Part shown: positions 1,948 through 9,233 of the stretch, piece by piece
Position numbering within the stretch: the first letter of the stretch is position 1
Layout: every line of letters starts with the position of its first letter
IMG/VR virus record: IMGVR_UViG_2630968558_000007
Coordinates: 1 to 9,233 of that record
DNA from: a virus
Lineage: Duplodnaviria; Heunggongvirae; Uroviricota; Caudoviricetes
DNA length: 9,233 nucleotides
Strand: one strand, 5' to 3'
Translations under genes and position numbers: made by a program
Notes under the pieces: model-generated
Seen by the model: only the letters and a program-made list of their open reading frames with translations
The model's database searches: none
What the model was told of the DNA's origin: nothing

Positions 1948-2337
1948 TTAACATTTTCTTTTTACTTTTCCAACAAAGGCTTTGGTTGAATCCATATTCC
2001 CATAACCAGAAATGGTTTTCGACATTAAAACTGTTCCATTAGGATGTATTACCCATGAGTCGATAACTCGTTGAGTTTCGCCATTCGCGCCGATTCCGAT
2101 GATGGAGTTTTTAGACAATGCTTTGTAAGCCATGCCGCCCGCATCCGTCCCAGAATATGTGATACTGGCATCTTCACCGTTTGTCTTAATGATGAATGTT
2201 CCACTAAAACCATCTTCTTCCGGTTGAAAATTATTTCGTTCTGAATAGCTTATTCCGTGCATATCTCCAACGACCCAGCACTCTGCTGAGACAGAAAACG
2301 AGAAGACAAAGAAAGCCATTGCTATAATCAATTTCAT
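1948..2337 (-). CDS. hypothetical secreted protein (predicted Sec signal peptide), third gene of the mnt operon
   Basis: 129-aa ORF. N-terminus MKLIIAMAFFVFSFSVSA|EC has a hydrophobic core and an AXA-like cleavage site, with no lipobox. Mature protein has Cys near both ends (ECWVV…KVKRKC). Start lies 15 nt after the stop of the upstream ORF, same strand as mnt. Visibly AT-rich. Confidence 0.55.
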   Translation of the reverse strand: MKLIIAMAFFVFSFSVSAECWVVGDMHGISYSERNNFQPEEDGFSGTFIIKTNGEDASITYSGTDAGGMAYKALSKNSIIGIGANGETQRVIDSWVIHPNGTVLMSKTISGYGNMDSTKAFVGKVKRKC

Positions 2338-2352
2338 TTTAAGCCCTTATTG

Positions 2353-2688
2353 TTATTGATTCTTTTTGCACGGAAATGTTTTTCCTACTGCTAGGGCGGT
2401 TAGTATAACTGCATTCTCATTTCTTGATTCTGGGTTTTTGTTTAGATATTTCTCAACGATATCGGTGTATTGATACATGTCAACGCCATCAGGAGGACAT
2501 AGAGAACCAATTAGTATCAATGAGTCAGTTACTCCGCGCAAATATCCAGTAATGTAAAGCGATGAAAAATCATCACCATTTTTACCTTGTTGAATGTTGT
2601 AAAGAAGGTCATTACCCGTTTGAAGCTCGCGCAGCTCAGCACTGGAAGAAGAGACAACTGCTAACAGGAACAGTGATAGAAATCTCAT
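2353..2688 (-). CDS. hypothetical secreted protein (predicted Sec signal peptide), translationally coupled to mnt
   Basis: 111-aa ORF. N-terminus MRFLSLFLLAVVSSSSA|EL is a signal peptide. Two Cys in the mature part (SLCPPDG, FPCKK). Its ATG overlaps the mnt stop in an ATGA arrangement (plus-strand tcat at 2685-2688). Confidence 0.55.
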   Translation of the reverse strand: MRFLSLFLLAVVSSSSAELRELQTGNDLLYNIQQGKNGDDFSSLYITGYLRGVTDSLILIGSLCPPDGVDMYQYTDIVEKYLNKNPESRNENAVILTALAVGKTFPCKKNQ

Positions 2689-2939
2689 TTCAAATCCTTT
2701 TCATAAATCTTTTTAAGTGTCTCAAACACTATAGCCTTGAACTGCTCGGCCTGCTGATCAGCCAAGCGTTCAGCTTCGTCGCGATATCCTGTAATCGGTG
2801 ATGGTTTTGATAGTGCATCCTGAACGATTTGTAATAACTCAGAGTTCATTGACCTTCCGTTAGCCTCGGCTCTTAATTTCAATTTTTCTCTTACTTCCAA
2901 AGGCATACGGAAGTTAAAGTGCGGATCATCTCTAGCCAT
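2685..2939 (-). CDS. mnt: Mnt repressor (ribbon-helix-helix maintenance repressor of immI)
   Basis: 84-aa product MARDDPHFNFRMPLEVREKLKLRAEANGRSMNSELLQIVQDALSKPSPITGY… is near-identical to P22 Mnt as I recall it. SD GGAGTGA upstream on the minus strand. Divergent from arc across the Pant/Pmnt region. Confidence 0.9.
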   Translation of the reverse strand: MARDDPHFNFRMPLEVREKLKLRAEANGRSMNSELLQIVQDALSKPSPITGYRDEAERLADQQAEQFKAIVFETLKKIYEKDLK

Positions 2940-2961
2940 GCCATCACTCCAAGTTAGTGTA

Positions 2962-2990
2962 TTGACATGATAGAAGCACTCTACTATATT
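2962..2990 (+). promoter_or_regulatory. Pant-like sigma70 promoter driving arc-ant (-35 TTGACA 2962-2967, 17-bp spacer, -10 TATATT 2985-2990)
   Basis: Consensus -35 and near-consensus -10 hexamers with a 17-bp spacer, directly upstream of arc. The Arc operator lies between the hexamers, as in P22 Pant. Confidence 0.7.
2967..2987. promoter_or_regulatory. Arc operator (ATGATAGAAGCACTCTACTAT)
   Basis: 21-bp sequence with TAGA/TCTA half-sites, matching the P22 arc operator from memory; sits in the Pant spacer. Confidence 0.8.
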
Positions 2991-2995
2991 CTCAA
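2967..2995 (-). promoter_or_regulatory. Pmnt-like promoter on the minus strand (-35 TTGAGA from 2995-2990, 17-bp spacer, -10 TATCAT from 2972-2967)
   Basis: Hexamers read on the minus strand with a 17-bp spacer, upstream of the mnt start; overlaps the Arc operator and abuts the Mnt operator. Hexamer assignment is by inspection only. Confidence 0.45.
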
Positions 2996-3015
2996 TAGGT
3001 CCACCGTGGACCTAT
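2995..3015. promoter_or_regulatory. Mnt operator (perfect palindrome ATAGGTCCACCGTGGACCTAT; 17-bp core 2997-3013)
   Basis: Perfect 21-bp inverted repeat. The 17-bp core is the reverse complement of the P22 Omnt sequence AGGTCCACGGTGGACCT as I recall it. It overlaps the predicted Pant start site. Confidence 0.8.
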
Positions 3016-3029
3016 ATTGTGAGGTGAAC

Positions 3030-3191
3030 ATGAAAGGAATGAGCAAAATGCCGCAGTTCAATTTGCGGTGGCCTAAAGAAGTATTGGATTTGGTACGCAA
3101 GGTGGCGGAAGAGAATGGTCGGTCTGTTAATTCTGAGATTTATCAGCGAGTAATGGAAAGCTTTAAGAAGGAAGGGCGCATTGGTGCGTAA
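3030..3191 (+). CDS. arc: Arc repressor (ribbon-helix-helix)
   Basis: Internal ATG at 3030 gives the 53-aa product [53 protein letters not shown], essentially P22 Arc. SD GAGGTG at 3021-3026. The 74-aa track ORF from 2967 runs back across the promoter and operators and is an over-extension. Confidence 0.9.
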
Positions 3192-3259
3192 AGTTGAAGC
3201 CCCAACTGCTGGAACAGTCAGGGCTTCGGTATCAACAAAACTTACGAGGTATTATTGAT

Positions 3260-4150
3260 ATGTCAAGCTTAGCAAAGTCAACTGTAAATTGCACTAATAG
3301 CATCATCATTTCTGACGTCAAGATTCATATGGATTCAGAGGGGCGTTACTCGCTTAATGACCTTCATGTAGCGTCTGGGAAGGAGGAAAAACATCAGCCA
3401 GCTTTCTTCATGCGTAGAAATGAAACTATTGAATTGATTAATGAAATTTTTAATTCTGCGGATATGCAGAATAAGAATCCCGTCCTTTCTAAGAAAGGTC
3501 GATATGGTGGAACCTACGTGTGCAAGGAGCTTGTTTACTCCTACGCCATGTGGATTAGTGCATCCTTTGCGCTGAAGGTTATCCGTGCATATGACGCAAT
3601 GGTTACTGCCACACAAGATAGGAAGGCTATTGGAGGTAAAACTTCAGTAGCTGAACGCACACCGCTACGAGATGCAGTAAACATGCTGGTAGGAAAGAAA
3701 GGACTTCGCTATGACGATGCATACAATATGGTTCATCAGCGTTTTGGTATTGACAGCATTGATGAACTTTCAATTGAACAAATCCCGCAAGCTGTAGAGT
3801 ACATCCACAGGGTGGTGCTTGAAGGTGAGTTCATCGGCAAACAAGAGAGGAAAGTCAACGAGCTTTCTGCAAAAGAAGCAAACAGCCTTGTATGGTTATG
3901 GGATTATGCCAACCGCTCACAGGCATTATTCCGCAAACTGTATCCGGCGCTGAAACAAATTCAATCGAACTATTCCGGCAGATGCTACGACTATGGTCAT
4001 GAGTTCTCGTATGTTATCGGAATGGCAAGAGACGTTTTAATAAACCACACACGAGATGTTGATATCAATGAGCCAGACGGACCAACGAATCTTTCCGCAT
4101 GGATGAGACTTAAGAATAAAGAATTACCTCCTTCAGTACATAACTACTGA
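3260..4150 (+). CDS. ant: antirepressor-like protein with N-terminal KilA-N domain (Ant position of immI)
   Basis: Position after arc as in P22. KilA-N-type motifs [13 protein letters not shown] and [25 protein letters not shown]. Preferred start is ATG 3260 (SD GAGGT at 3246-3250), giving 297 aa; the track ORF begins at TTG 3194, 2 nt after the arc stop and with no SD. Confidence 0.65.
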
Positions 4151-4169
4151 CAGATAACCAACGCAACGA

Positions 4170-4192
4170 CCCAGCTTCGGCTGGGTTTTTTT
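4170..4192 (+). terminator. Rho-independent terminator after ant (stem CCCAGC / GCTGGG, loop TTCG, then a 7-T run)
   Basis: Perfect 6-bp GC-rich stem at 4170-4175 and 4180-4185 with a 4-nt loop, followed directly by T7 at 4186-4192, about 20 nt after the ant stop. Confidence 0.7.
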
Positions 4193-4250
4193 ATGCCCAA
4201 AATTCACCGTAGCCATGCTGCGGCGATTCCTTGTATCTGGAGCAAATTAA

Positions 4251-6173
4251 ATGACAGACATTACAGCCAATGTGATTGTATCGATGCCTTCGCAACTCTT
4301 CACTATGGCACGTTCTTTTAAAGCCGTAGCCAATGGCAAAATTTATATAGGAAAAATTGACACTGACCCGGTAAATCCTGAAAACCAGATTCAGGTTTAT
4401 GTGGAGAATGAGGATGGTTCTCACGTTCCTGTTTCACAACCAATCATCATTAACGCTGCTGGATATCCGGTATATAACGGACAGATTGCCAAGTTCGTAA
4501 CTGTGCAAGGCCACTCTATGGCTGTTTATGATGCATATGGTGCGCAGCAGTTCTATTTTCCTAATGTGCTGAAGTACGACCCGGATCAGTTAAGGCAGCA
4601 GATTGAAGACCCTGATGGGGCAACCAAATATCCCGCATTGCAGATTTCTCGCTGGCGTGATGATTTAGACGTGCGTGGATGGGGAGTATTCCCGGATGGT
4701 ACAGATGTTACTGCTAAACTGTGTGAGGCATTGGATTATGCTAACGGTGATTATTCACAATTAGTTGAGTATGGGAAAAACAGAAAATCATTGCATATCC
4801 CTCCAGGCGATTATGTCGTTGATATGACCAAGCTGACTGGCATTCATGCTTCTGCTGGTCGCTTTGTGATCCGCTGTAACGTTGATTGTGTTGGCCGAAT
4901 CCCTAACGGGGATTTCCTAATCCTTCATAGTAAATCTATAAATGTAACTGGCCTTTCATGTAAATCGTTATACATTAGAGGGCTACAGTTTTCTATTATC
5001 TCGAACATTGATACGACCGGCGATATAAGATTTTTTTCATCAGACGCATACACTCTGCCTGGGTTGGTTGTATGGGGTGGCGGGAGTTATTGGAATCATT
5101 TTGTACGCATCAAAACAGGTACTGCGGCAGGTGGTGGCAGATTCATAATTGACATCTCTGATGGATCTATAAATCAAAATACATTTGAGCAGCTTTGCGG
5201 TGGTGGTCTGATCATAACTGGATCAGGTTTTAGTCGCCAGACCGGTGCTCCGTATGAGGGGAACGCAAACACATTTATAGGTCTTGACACATCGGGAAGC
5301 GGCGATTATTTGCTCTATAACAATAGCACCCCAAATCAGCATAATGTTGTGATAGGTTTGTATGGCGAGGTTACGGGCAATGGGAAAATACGTGGGCCGT
5401 GGACCATACTTGGCGCGCGTGCGCAATTTGGGGGCTGGGCCTCAACCATGAGCCCCATGAATACCATATTAGGGACAGACCCTACAGCAGGCTCACAGGG
5501 AGGAGAGACGTTCAGTGTCTCCGGTTCTAATCTTTGCCCTTCTGGAGATTGGTCGGTTATTGAAGGAGTCTACGGAGCACCGATTGACTTTTCCCTTTTA
5601 ACTATACCGAACGAACGAAAGGTTGGTTCTGACCCTAATGAACCATCTGGCTGCGGTAGATGGTTTGGAGTCACTAACGCATCTCAACGTTGCAGAATAA
5701 CCCTAAATTTAACTAAAACACAGTCAGGTTTCATTCGTGGAGCTTTTTACTTTAAAGGCGACACACCGCTTGAGATAGCTATAGAAGCTCAAGATGGTAC
5801 TAATACCATCTATATGCCAGTTAATATGTTCTACGATATGGGTGTTGGAGGGTGGAAGTTATACAAAGTTTCAGCGCCAACCAACGACAAAAGTAAAGCA
5901 TACAGATTAAGGATTACAGTTGAATCCGGAATGAGCGCTTATGTTGGAGGAGCGTATTTTAGCCAGTATAACGGAACCTTTCTTCCAGTATTCTGCGGAT
6001 GGGAGAAAGTAAAAATGAGATCTAGCGTAAAGCCTACTGTGACAGAGAACACAGGTTCTTTCCCAATCGGCTTGGTGTCCTACAGAACATCTCCAGCAAC
6101 ATATCCTTCCGACCCTACTGTCCAATGGGTGTGGAATGGAAGTACATGGGGGATTGTGAATATTTCTGCCTAA
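4251..6173 (+). CDS. tailspike protein (P22 gp9 / Sf6-type head-binding domain fused to a divergent receptor-binding domain)
   Basis: First ~113 aa ([50 protein letters not shown]…NVLKYDPDQ) are near-identical to the Sf6/HK620/P22 tailspike head-binding domain as recalled. The remaining ~525 aa are Gly/Ser/Thr/Asn-rich and consistent with a beta-helix receptor-binding domain. SD GGAG at 4239-4242. Confidence 0.9.
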
Positions 6174-6178
6174 CCAAT

Positions 6179-6203
6179 AGCGGCATGCTTCAAACATGCC
6201 GCT
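6179..6203. terminator. hairpin between convergent tailspike and acyltransferase genes (possible bidirectional terminator)
   Basis: Perfect 9-bp stem AGCGGCATG / CATGCCGCT with a 7-nt loop, 6 nt after the tailspike stop and just before the acyltransferase stop. No strong U-tract on either strand, so terminator function is uncertain. Confidence 0.35.
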
Positions 6204-6209
6204 TCAAAA

Positions 6210-7307
6210 TTATCTTGGAATATTTTTCTCGATATATTTATAGCTTAGTAGTGCAAAAGCTACAGATGTTATAAATACAATAAAAATAAACGAGAAGCTT
6301 TTTGATAAATCAGCCATCCCAAGCCAATCTATCATCTTAAAGCATAATATAAACGTAATTGGATGAACTAAATACAAAGAGTATGAAGCATCACCAATCA
6401 TGATGAAAATACGTGGTATTTTGATGTTGTCTTGTATGTAGTCAGAGCATGCAGTAAAGCATGCAAACATTATGCAAAAATATTTCCCTGAATGAAAAAT
6501 CCCATGCCCAGCATCAAACTGTGTTATGTAAGCCCATACAGGGATTATGATTCCAATCGAAATTAATGGTATTGCAATCCTTTTGTCTCTAATTGAAAAG
6601 TTACCACTTTTGTATAGGATAGCAATAATCGCACCGAAGACAAACTCCCAAATCAGGCTTTGCATGGTTAAATTTATATATCCTAAACCTTCAATTTTTG
6701 GTCTGTCGAATACACCCGCAATAGATGGCAAAGCTAACAGTGTAATGAAAAACCATAATATATAAAATGTATACCTAAACTTCCCCAGCGCTATTCCAAT
6801 GGCGCAAACTAAATAAAAATATATTTCATAATTGAGGGTCCATCCAACGAACAATGATGGAGGCCCAAAGTATATAGGTGACTCAGTGTTTAGTGGAATG
6901 AAAAGCAAACCTTTGATTATGTTTGTTAATTCAAATGAGCTAGATGATTGGTTATATGAAAACCCATGCATTAAAGATAAATCAACATTTTTAACAATGA
7001 CTATATATGCAATAGTCATGATGAAATATAGAGGCCAAACTCTTAAGAAACGTTTTTTAATAAACTTTATCAAATCATTGCTTTGGTAGCTATGAGACGT
7101 ATAAATTATGATAAAACCACTAATGATGAAAAATAAATCAACTCCGAATGCACCAGGCCAAAATAATCGCTGAGCCAGCCATTCATATTCTGTTCCTTTC
7201 AAAAAATCCCTTGCATGGCAAAGTACGACAAGCATAGCTGCAATAGCCCTAAGCGCCTGTATATACTGAAGGTTATTCTTTCTTGGTGGACTGTTATCGA
7301 TTTCCAA
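6210..7307 (-). CDS. acyltransferase-3 family integral membrane protein (O-antigen acetyltransferase, Oac-like serotype-conversion candidate)
   Basis: 365-aa polytopic hydrophobic protein with acyltransferase-3 signatures: N-terminal LRAIAAMLVVLCH, FGVDLFFIISGF, C-terminal SYSLYLVHP. Sits between tailspike and integrase where Sf6 carries oac. Visibly AT-rich. Apparent TTG start at 7307 with AGGTG 4 nt upstream. Confidence 0.8.
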   Translation of the reverse strand: MEIDNSPPRKNNLQYIQALRAIAAMLVVLCHARDFLKGTEYEWLAQRLFWPGAFGVDLFFIISGFIIIYTSHSYQSNDLIKFIKKRFLRVWPLYFIMTIAYIVIVKNVDLSLMHGFSYNQSSSSFELTNIIKGLLFIPLNTESPIYFGPPSLFVGWTLNYEIYFYLVCAIGIALGKFRYTFYILWFFITLLALPSIAGVFDRPKIEGLGYINLTMQSLIWEFVFGAIIAILYKSGNFSIRDKRIAIPLISIGIIIPVWAYITQFDAGHGIFHSGKYFCIMFACFTACSDYIQDNIKIPRIFIMIGDASYSLYLVHPITFILCFKMIDWLGMADLSKSFSFIFIVFITSVAFALLSYKYIEKNIPR

Positions 7308-7442: not shown

Positions 7443-7829
7443 ATGGGATTCCCGAGTCCAGCACAAGACTACGTTGAAGAGCGCATATCGCTCGACAAGT
7501 GCATCATAAGCAGGCCAGCGGCAACGTACTTCATGCGAGCGGGTGCGACGCACTACCGGGAAGGTATCCTGAATGGCGCGCTGCTGGTTGTGGATGCTTC
7601 GCTATCACCATGCGACGGCTCATTACTTGTTTGCAGAATGGAAGGTGAGCTGAGGATTAAGCGATACCGCAAATCACCCAAGGTTCACCTGGAAGATTTG
7701 CAGACAGGAAGAAGGGAGGCTATACCTCTGCACGATGACGGAACGAGCCCTGATGCGATATTTGGCGTAATCACCTACATCATCAACGATGCGCGGACGG
7801 GTGAGTTTGATGATTGCCCGGTGATGTGA
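7443..7829 (+). CDS. UmuD'-like protein (S24 LexA/UmuD-family C-terminal domain, N-terminally pre-truncated, predicted non-catalytic)
   Basis: 128 aa. MGFPSPAQDYVEERISLD…ATYF… aligns with E. coli UmuD from Gly25 onward (UmuD: C|GFPSPAADYVEQRIDLN…SATYF). The UmuD GDSM catalytic-Ser motif is replaced by ATHY; the Lys-containing region is retained (ELRIKRY vs EFTVKKL). Strong SD, LexA box upstream, no umuC-like gene in the window. Confidence 0.8.
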   Translation: MGFPSPAQDYVEERISLDKCIISRPAATYFMRAGATHYREGILNGALLVVDASLSPCDGSLLVCRMEGELRIKRYRKSPKVHLEDLQTGRREAIPLHDDGTSPDAIFGVITYIINDARTGEFDDCPVM

Positions 7830-7899: not shown

Positions 7900-9057
7900 T
7901 TAGCCCACCTTTTCATCAAGCCAATCCGCCCACCACTGCATCATCTCCCTGCGCTTATCGAGATACTGAGCATGGTTGTAAATTCCACGCACAGATCCGC
8001 CATTGGCATGTGCCAGTTGCACTTCAATAGCATCAGCAGGCCATTCGTGCTCGTTCATAATCGTACTGAATTCATGCCTGAATCCGTGACCGCTTTCCAG
8101 ACCCTCATAGCCGATTTGTTTGATCACAAGTAATACCGCGTTCTCGCAGATTGGCTTCTTCTTATCATTACGCCCGGCAAAAACAAACTCTGATACTGGT
8201 TTGGTGATGGAGCTTAACGTAGTGAGAAGTTCAACCACTTGGTCCGACATCGGGACCACATGAATCTTGCGTCCCTTCATCACACTGGCGTCGATAGTGA
8301 TAATCCTGTTTTCAAAATCGACGTTCTTCCATAGCATAGAACGAAGCTCTTTCGTTCTTAGGGCTGTGTAGCGTAAAACTTTGGTCGCAATGAGCGATAC
8401 GATACTTCCTGAAAATGTTGCCAGTGCTTTGTTGAATGTCGGGATCTGGTCTGCAGGAAGAAACGGGAAGTTCTTCTTGCGGTATCCCTTCATGGCGTCA
8501 GCAAGATCAGGTGCCGGGTTATATTTAGCCCTTCCGGTGACAATAGCGTAACGGAAAACCTCGCCGCATCTTCTGCGTGCTTTGTTGGCTCGTTCCATTG
8601 CACCGCGATCTTCAAACCTGCGGATTACTTCAAGAAGTTGCATCGGCTCAATATCCTGAATTTCAAGACCGCCGATGATGGGTAAAATGTCGTCATCAAA
8701 CATTTTGGCAAGTTCAGTCGTATACCCTACAGACCAGACTTGCTTCTTGTGCTCGTACCATTCCTTGTAAATGGCGCTAAAGGAATTGTTGTTAGACGAA
8801 GCCTTTTTCGCCTTTACCGGATCGATGCCAACCGAGATGTCTTTCCTCGCAGTCCATGCTTTATCCCTTGCCTCTTGCAAAGTCATAAGCGGATATTTTC
8901 CGACGGTCAGGATTTTCTCCTTACCGTCAATCTTGTAGCGAAGCTGCCATACCTTTTTCCCTGACACAGGGACATAAAGGTACAGGCCATTACCATCGAG
9001 AAGGCGGTATGGTTTTTCTTTCGGCTTTGCTGCTTCAATCTGCTTAACGGTGAGCAT
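7900..9057 (-). CDS. int: P4-type tyrosine integrase (IntS-like, tRNA-Arg-associated)
   Basis: Product from ATG 9057 is 385 aa, MLTVKQIEAAKPKEKPYRLLDGNGLYLYVPVSGKKVWQLRY… (P4-type N-terminal arm-binding domain), with C-terminal catalytic motifs HGFRHEF and RGIYNHAQY. The track ORF extends to GTG 9093, a less likely start. Adjacent to a tRNA-Arg 3' end, like E. coli K-12 intS next to argW. Confidence 0.9.
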   Translation of the reverse strand: MLTVKQIEAAKPKEKPYRLLDGNGLYLYVPVSGKKVWQLRYKIDGKEKILTVGKYPLMTLQEARDKAWTARKDISVGIDPVKAKKASSNNNSFSAIYKEWYEHKKQVWSVGYTTELAKMFDDDILPIIGGLEIQDIEPMQLLEVIRRFEDRGAMERANKARRRCGEVFRYAIVTGRAKYNPAPDLADAMKGYRKKNFPFLPADQIPTFNKALATFSGSIVSLIATKVLRYTALRTKELRSMLWKNVDFENRIITIDASVMKGRKIHVVPMSDQVVELLTTLSSITKPVSEFVFAGRNDKKKPICENAVLLVIKQIGYEGLESGHGFRHEFSTIMNEHEWPADAIEVQLAHANGGSVRGIYNHAQYLDKRREMMQWWADWLDEKVG

Positions 9058-9218
9058 GGGTAAAAATCCGGTGGGTAAAATTATTTTATCCACTTTTTAC
9101 CCGTCATGGAGTGCGGCTGTCAACGATCTGACGCGAACCATTACGAACTGTGAATCTACGGAAGGCTTGATATTCAGGGGATTTTGCGGACTGGTACGGA
9201 TGGGAGCGAACTGATAAA

Positions 9219-9233
9219 TGGTGTCCCCTGCAG
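9219..9233 (-). tRNA. argW: 3' terminal segment of tRNA-Arg (argW-like), cut by the window edge; attachment-site core or end of the intact tRNA gene
   Basis: Reverse complement of 9219-9233 is CTGCAGGGGACACCA, matching the 3' end (…TTCGATTCCTGCAGGGGACACCA) of E. coli tRNA-Arg(CCU) argW as I recall it. Same orientation as int and about 160 bp upstream of its start. Only 15 nt are visible. Confidence 0.5.

Follow-up and report, generated by a model that had tools for sequence, protein, structure and literature searches.

Phage P22 carries, in its immunity-I (immI) region (BK000583), the genes and elements mnt, Pant/Pmnt, arc, sar, ant, terminator and tailspike, and its antirepressor Ant has, like that of epsilon34, the Pfam architecture P22_AR_N + P22_AR_C. 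Previous studies described that P22 Ant inactivates several different repressors (PMC3121763), that the 'ant moron' is highly mosaic (PMC2629481), and that the Ant of Phi24B shares only its C-terminal part with P22 Ant, with lysogen formation rates on superinfection that were not measurably affected (PMC3064807). A published list of the domains in a domain-swapping Bro network includes KilA-N, Bro-N, P22_AR_N and P22_AR_C (PMC10111431). At the ant position of P22-like phages and prophages, P22_AR_N or Bro-N heads are found on the same conserved C-terminal body. KilA-N heads are known from P1 KilA, whose N-terminal domain is homologous to the Ant head analyzed here (about 38% identity), and from KilA-N proteins of Stx, SfV, Vibrio and Ralstonia phages (45–58% identity to the same head), but all these proteins have other C-terminal domains and are encoded outside immI, and none carries a P22 Ant body.

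The stretch of DNA analyzed in this study (9,233 nt, hereafter the window) has an immI circuit with a layout identical to that of P22, except that the P22_AR_N head of Ant is replaced by a KilA-N head. The Ant of Salmonella phage vB_SemP_Emek (YP_006560573.1; JQ806763/NC_018275) is likewise 296 aa long, is 97% identical over its full length (eight amino-acid differences), has the same KilA-N + P22_AR_C composition and the same ATG, and its gene also lies between arc/sar and the tailspike gene; Emek differs from the window in its mnt-side gene set and in having a 73-aa ORF inserted between arc and sar-ant. The Ant proteins with Bro-N + P22_AR_C (e.g., WP_000835339.1, 'phage repressor protein/antirepressor Ant') of E. 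coli and Salmonella P22-like prophages occupy the same slot, with the same arc and C-terminal body, and their alleles resemble the window in having sar abutting the ATG and nearly 100% identical DNA flanking the exchanged segment, but they carry a Bro-N head, a total length of 292 aa and the canonical Psar −10 TATACT. GenBank/RefSeq already contain the allele of the window with this architecture and this start codon (Emek 2012; PGAP), and PGAP names such proteins 'P22AR C-terminal domain-containing protein' or 'KilA-N domain-containing protein'.

Prophage setting and the immI region

The prophage in the window is P22-like (Lederbergvirus-type) and integrated, and the window comprises its argW-proximal end. 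With the tip of a tRNA-Arg gene as its last bases and an integrase gene immediately inside, the window extends as far as the attL/argW junction of the integrated prophage; ARAGORN found no tRNA in the window because only this tip is present. Outside immI, the following features were annotated:

82–1923: gp16-like ejection protein
between the ejection gene and mnt, minus strand: small moron gene pair, given in the next two lines
1948–2337, minus strand: 129-aa protein with a signal-peptide-like N-terminus
2353–2688, minus strand: Rap1a/Tai-family protein (T6SS immunity-like), 111 aa; Pfam PF18602, 55 bits; phrog_3870
4251–6173: tailspike with P22 head-binding domain, 640 aa
within 4251–7307, 3' of the tailspike, minus strand: Acyl_transf_3 protein, 365 aa
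7443–7829, plus strand: Peptidase_S24 protein, HumD/UmuD'-like, 128 aa, N-terminus MGFPSPAQDY
7900–9093, minus strand: IntS-type integrase
9219–9233, minus strand: tRNA-Arg 3' end, CTGCAGGGGACACCA, the last bases of the window

The P22 head-binding domain (residues 1–113) is the only recognisable domain of the tailspike, and the acyltransferase is a likely O-antigen-modifying conversion gene; relatives instead have other tailspike bodies and an SGNH hydrolase. The sequence MGFPSPAQDY is what we take to be the N-terminus of already-processed UmuD', and the gene at 7443–7829, flanked by the acyltransferase on one side and the integrase on the other, looks like a pre-activated UmuD'-like moron (a homologue, partial there, is named 'HumD family translesion DNA polymerase' by PGAP). 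The Rap1a/Tai gene immediately follows mnt within the 'ant moron' and may be a phage-borne orphan immunity gene; its homologue in E. coli strain 2-1 received the PGAP name 'Rap1a/Tai family immunity protein'. The adjoining gene at 1948–2337 has a strong match to phrog_2651 (unknown function) and no match in the Pfam search. An exact copy of the window was found neither in complete E. coli genomes nor in the phage collection, the best matches reaching 97.9% and 95.6%.

Positions 2685–4194 are the complete immI region of this P22-like prophage at argW, with the following elements:

2685–2939, minus strand: mnt repressor gene, 84 aa; Pfam Arc, 97.6 bits, and Repressor_Mnt, 44.4 bits; collinear with P22 Mnt
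2962–2995: overlapping divergent promoters Pant/Pmnt with arc/mnt operators
3030–3191, plus strand: arc, 53 aa, with Shine-Dalgarno (SD) sequence GAGGTG at 3021–3026
3192–3259, minus strand: sar antisense RNA (Rfam RF00262)
3246–3250, plus strand: SD sequence of ant, GAGGT, facing the sar 5' hairpin loop
3260–4150, plus strand: ant, 296 aa, with a KilA-N head, a helical middle module and a P22_AR_C tail
3266–3274, minus strand: candidate extended −10 of Psar, TGcTAAGCT, within ant codons 3–5
4168–4194, plus strand: intrinsic terminator after ant, 8-bp stem followed by a T-run

The plus-strand promoter Pant (TTGACA at 2962–2967, 17-nt spacer, TATATT at 2985–2990) and the minus-strand promoter Pmnt (TTGAGA, 17-nt spacer, TATCAT) scored 11/12 and 10/12 in the promoter scan, and the segment 2962–2995 is 100% identical to P22, where Pant, Pmnt, O-arc and O-mnt are annotated in BK000583. 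The stretch comprising Pmnt/Pant, arc and the sar terminator hairpin shows no less than 90% identity to P22 in each 30-nt segment, and most segments reach 97–100%. The Arc product, a ribbon-helix-helix protein of 53 aa (Pfam Arc, 104 bits), differs from P22 Arc in a single residue (R16K, 1/53). P22 Arc is the classic 53-aa protein, and the view that the 74-aa arc ORF (2967–3191) is an over-call was confirmed: this ORF contains the 53-aa Arc starting at ATG 3030, solved 53-aa Arc chains (e.g., 1arq) align end to end with its residues 22–74, and P22, PDB and PGAP agree on 53 aa. In addition, the A of ATG 2967 is also the final base of the Pant −35 hexamer, which places this codon outside the Pant transcript; the identical 74-aa ORF also exists in P22. 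The terminator at 4168–4194 is homologous to the annotated ant terminators of P22, epsilon34 and Emek.

sar RNA and the start codon of ant

The sar RNA matched Rfam RF00262 with 66.3 bits (gathering threshold 43, E = 2e−12) along the full model (1–68), from position 3258 to 3192 on the minus strand. Its minimum free energy fold consists of two hairpins (−29.2 kcal/mol, z = −6.5), namely the 3' terminator hairpin at about 3196–3227 and a 5' hairpin with the anti-SD CCUC in its loop, and all three head types keep this fold, including the location of the anti-SD in the 5' loop. Compared to P22, the terminator hairpin is the same except for its loop, and the sar 5' half and the SD differ in sequence but the hairpin is kept. 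In all 11 other loci sar abuts the ant ATG, and in 10 of these 11 it scores above the Rfam gathering threshold (the Enterobacter locus L019 has 28 bits). As sar abuts ant even where an extra gene splits arc and ant, sar travels with ant; such extra genes between arc and sar-ant are the 73-aa ORF of Emek (L001 1665–1886), an 89-aa ORF in APEC O2-211 (L005 1286–1555), a 60-aa ClpX-type zinc-finger protein in LR-64-1 (L009 721–903), and a 52-aa ORF in Salmonella (L017 2779–2937).

The candidate −10 of Psar in the window fell below the threshold of the consensus promoter scan and was recognized by hand comparison with P22, whose annotated Psar −10 (TGcTATACT) has the same position in ant codons 3–5. 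Among the loci compared (L002, L003, L006, L007, L017, L019), TGcTATACT is kept in P22_AR_N, Bro-N and one Salmonella KilA-N allele; the KilA-N subgroup of the window has TGcTAAGCT, and Enterobacter has AGcTAAACT. The hexamer of the window (TAAGCT) differs from that of P22 (TATACT) at −10 positions 3 and 4, and it keeps T1, A2, T6 and the upstream TG; judged from the sequence, sar expression in this subgroup may be weaker or lost. Psar appears to constrain ant codons 3–5 (M-x-S-I/L-A) across unrelated heads, as these share M-x-S-I/L-A N-termini because the Psar −10 is conserved in these codons.

The original prediction preferred ATG 3260 over the TTG start (position 3194) of the six-frame ORF (3194–4150, 318 aa), and five independent lines of evidence point to ATG 3260 as the true start of ant. 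The GAGGT at 3246–3250 is located exactly 9 nt upstream, and the homologues, PHROG and public annotation agree with this start: the methionine encoded by ATG 3260 is invariant in 14 homologues (57–97% identity), position 1 of the PHROG 2812 profile aligns to it, and the N-terminal extensions of longer database entries are mutually non-homologous. The interval from TTG to ATG is wholly filled by sar (Rfam, minus strand 3258–3192), and the 22-codon extension from TTG 3194 is the sar complement, which is open in frame by accident. In the near-identical KilA-N alleles L004 and L008 (from E. coli UPEC_U013 and SWYH.B349aT) as well as in P22 and the Bro-N allele L006, the upstream frame ends at a TAA located in the terminator-hairpin loop of sar, and these closed frames offer no alternative start ahead of the ATG. 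Translation from TTG 3194 into a 318-aa protein, translationally coupled to arc, is thus extremely unlikely and effectively refuted by comparison, although the frame is open in the window, the TTG follows the arc stop by 2 nt, and some pipelines extend relatives in a similar way. The assertion that no SD precedes this TTG was not strictly correct, as a weak GGTG is present 7 nt upstream (3183–3186), but the closed frames in the four alleles, the exact coincidence of the extension with the sar complement, the lack of homology among extensions in other taxa, and profile and homologue alignments that begin at the ATG still rule the TTG out. In annotations, the 66 nt ahead of ant are to be assigned to sar and not to a coding sequence.

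It had also been expected that automated annotation would get both genes wrong, which holds for over-extended ant calls in Enterobacter but not for E. coli, where PGAP starts ant at the equivalent of ATG 3260 in 6/6 RefSeq loci. An 891-nt ant with this start is given in the Emek records and by PGAP in the E. coli relatives, and PGAP also calls a 162-nt arc; its arc calls in the six E. coli loci range from 50 to 57 aa and are exactly 53 aa in the three with the arc of the window. In the Enterobacter relatives (P0011, P0013, P0016, P0022, P0027, L019) the calls are 322–342 aa long, with N-terminal extensions that run across the sar-like hairpin; one contig yields both 296-aa and 326-aa entries, and the long call in L019 (2799–3779) shares 20 nt with arc. 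These 322–342-aa entries are probably start-codon over-calls in public databases.

Domain architecture and exchange of the Ant head

The following segments were distinguished in and around ant:

about 3240–3659, plus strand: putative exchanged cassette of ~420 bp, comprising the sar 5' hairpin loop/SD and ant codons 1 to about 133
3314–3601, plus strand: KilA-N domain, Ant residues 19–114 (Pfam PF04383)
3638–4147, plus strand: conserved Ant body, residues 127–296, with the middle module (127–189) and P22_AR_C (about 197–268)

Both KilA-N-like motifs reported in the original prediction are present (residues 50–62 and 106–125 of the TTG ORF) and lie within the Pfam KilA-N match (PF04383, 69.1 bits versus a cutoff of 23.8, E = 3e−19, TTG-ORF residues 41–136), which spans positions 7–104 of the 107 positions of the profile. 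P22_AR_N (PF10547) had no match in the Ant of the window and scored 150–154 bits for the Ant of P22 and epsilon34 in the same type of search. No P22-Ant-family match covering the full length was obtained with HMMs, so the KilA-N call stands. The first ~126 residues had no similarity to P22 Ant in BLASTP; in contrast, residues 127–296 are 84% identical to residues 131–300 of P22 Ant, and the C-terminal part matches P22_AR_C (PF10548) with 99 bits versus a cutoff of 22.4. The proposed placement in the KilA-N family rather than the P22 Ant family is therefore right for the N-terminal domain, which is KilA-N and not P22_AR_N, but not for the body. Ant is a chimera, with a KilA-N head (residues ~1–126) on a P22 Ant body, and its gene is an allele of ant; given the body and its P22_AR_C domain, it is a head-swapped allele in an immI circuit that is otherwise identical to that of P22, including sar.

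The AlphaFold2 model of Ant (mean pLDDT 73) consists of three modules (residues 13–117, 127–189, and 200–290) with low-confidence linkers between them, the first being an alpha/beta module (pLDDT about 65–87) and the helical ones being parted by a low-pLDDT linker at 190–199, which fits a modular protein. The top matches of Foldseek in BFVD were viral KilA-N proteins (E from 7e−9 to 1e−3). A PDB sequence search with Ant found nothing, and Foldseek against PDB gave no match at E ≤ 0.001 (best DdrC, E = 0.13, TM 0.22), the latter result being uninformative, since the model leaves the orientation of the three modules to one another unfixed (pTM 0.36). Ant is not covered by any NCBIfam model, and among PHROG matches with annotated function the best were anti-repressor families.

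At the DNA level, homology to P22 breaks at about 3231 and returns inside ant. In comparison with the Bro-N allele L007, identity per 30-nt segment is at least 93% up to about 3240 (mostly 100%), 13–63% within 3240–3659, and 90–100% from 3660 onwards. These breakpoints delimit the putative ~420-bp cassette, which would replace the P22_AR_N of P22 by KilA-N, leaving the C-terminal 170 residues as in P22 Ant. A fourth combination was found in database proteins of 296 aa (P0038–P0045), whose residues 1–195 are 97–99% identical to the Ant of the window and whose last ~100 residues are unrelated to it and lack P22_AR_C; this architecture suggests a second, putative recombination joint at the 190–199 linker.

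Function of the allele and its alternatives

Taken together, the gene at 3260–4150 is probably the antirepressor gene ant of a P22-like immI region, in a head-swapped allele that is translated from ATG 3260. By analogy with P22, with which the promoter/operator DNA is identical, Mnt would shut Pant in the lysogen, and Arc, the first product of Pant, would limit the burst after infection. The ~68-nt sar, transcribed from a putative promoter in ant codons 3–5, would pair with the arc–ant spacer including the SD and thereby block ant translation, a role attributed to an element recognized by Rfam and folding. As expected from its homology with P22 Ant, Ant would bind CI/C2-type repressors non-covalently and inactivate them, probably via the body (residues 127–296), and the exchangeable head of DNA-binding type may add a targeting or specificity function unmatched to the resident repressor. 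The antirepressor activity is predicted by analogy from the conserved body only, and the head swap could have removed a repressor-binding surface. The superinfection result for the Ant of Phi24B, which likewise has only the C-terminal part in common with P22 Ant, also counts against this activity.

In order to relate the head to the resident repressor, six prophages were compared, in which the Ant head does not track the repressor; the two loci are about 25 kb apart in mosaic genomes, and this small comparison, from which L016 was left out because it lay beyond its prophage, excludes only strict coupling. Three repressors with 31–42% mutual identity accompany the KilA-N allele: one resembling P22 C2 (93.5% identity), one of 237 aa and one of 238 aa. 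The P22-type C2 occurs together with P22_AR_N heads as well as with KilA-N heads. This absence of tracking is best fitted by repressor recognition through the conserved body, or by broad specificity, with the head in another targeting role. The P22-like prophage of APEC O2-211 combines a KilA-N Ant with a 237-aa repressor (L013 5063–5776), which is presumably lambda-CI-like, and a 66-aa Cro, in line with a free reassortment of immC and immI. The same prophages have a second antirepressor-like gene in their nin region (L011 9866–10588; L015 9390–10001), named 'phage antirepressor KilAC domain-containing protein', and the immI Ant is thus not the sole Bro-network protein per genome.

The KilA-N head could alternatively mean that the protein has another primary job, as a DNA-binding regulator or as a KilA/BstA-like host-killing or abortive-infection factor that reuses the ant slot and its control, a reading that we consider unlikely. 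DNA binding is ascribed to KilA-N domains, the head does not follow the resident repressor, a weak local PADLOC match to the candidate family PDC-S22 (39 bits) covers residues 74–123, and the P22-like prophage BTP1 encodes BstA, which is KilA-N-like and acts in defence by abortive infection (bioRxiv 10.1101/2020.07.13.199331). However, PADLOC gave no match to its BstA model (E ≤ 0.01), BstA has another C-terminal domain, and bstA adjoins cI, downstream of which it is located with its own aba element and outside the mnt/arc/sar control of immI; on these grounds the BstA/defence reading was rejected. Moreover, 57% of the protein shares the 84% identity with the experimentally characterised P22 antirepressor, the best function-annotated PHROG families point to the same activity, and the three-layer repression (Mnt, Arc, sar) is kept, as expected for an antirepressor. 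The notion of a decaying or non-functional ant remnant, produced by illegitimate recombination, has to be confronted with an ORF that is intact at 295–300 aa in E. coli, Salmonella and Enterobacter, where full-length KilA-N + P22_AR_C homologues of 57–97% identity, again beside mnt/arc, have many invariant core residues in both halves. One 90%-identity cluster of homologues has 429 member sequences, the KilA-N allele is present in 34 out of 5426 complete E. coli genomes with differing flanks and immC regions, and the SD, sar and terminator are all retained; such a remnant is thus very unlikely, even if the GenBank note of Emek flags the allele as '(Defective?)', the Psar −10 is weakened, and ant is known to be degraded in HK620 and Scho1 (PMC2629481).

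Within the antirepressor reading, ant may serve as a cassette acceptor. A constant sar/Psar scaffold (the terminator hairpin of sar, the stem of its 5' hairpin, and the Psar −10) on one side and a constant body on the other would then border a ~420-bp hot spot in which unrelated heads of DNA-binding type (P22_AR_N, KilA-N, Bro-N) are swapped. As the head does not match the resident C2/CI repressor, its role could be that of a variable targeting module directed against repressors of other prophages or against DNA (inter-prophage warfare or cross-induction) and not that of a component of the phage's own switch, a speculative idea that we hold to be improbable. The significance of the locus goes little beyond its correct annotation, but the head-swapped alleles are a natural experiment for mapping the part of Ant that contacts repressors.
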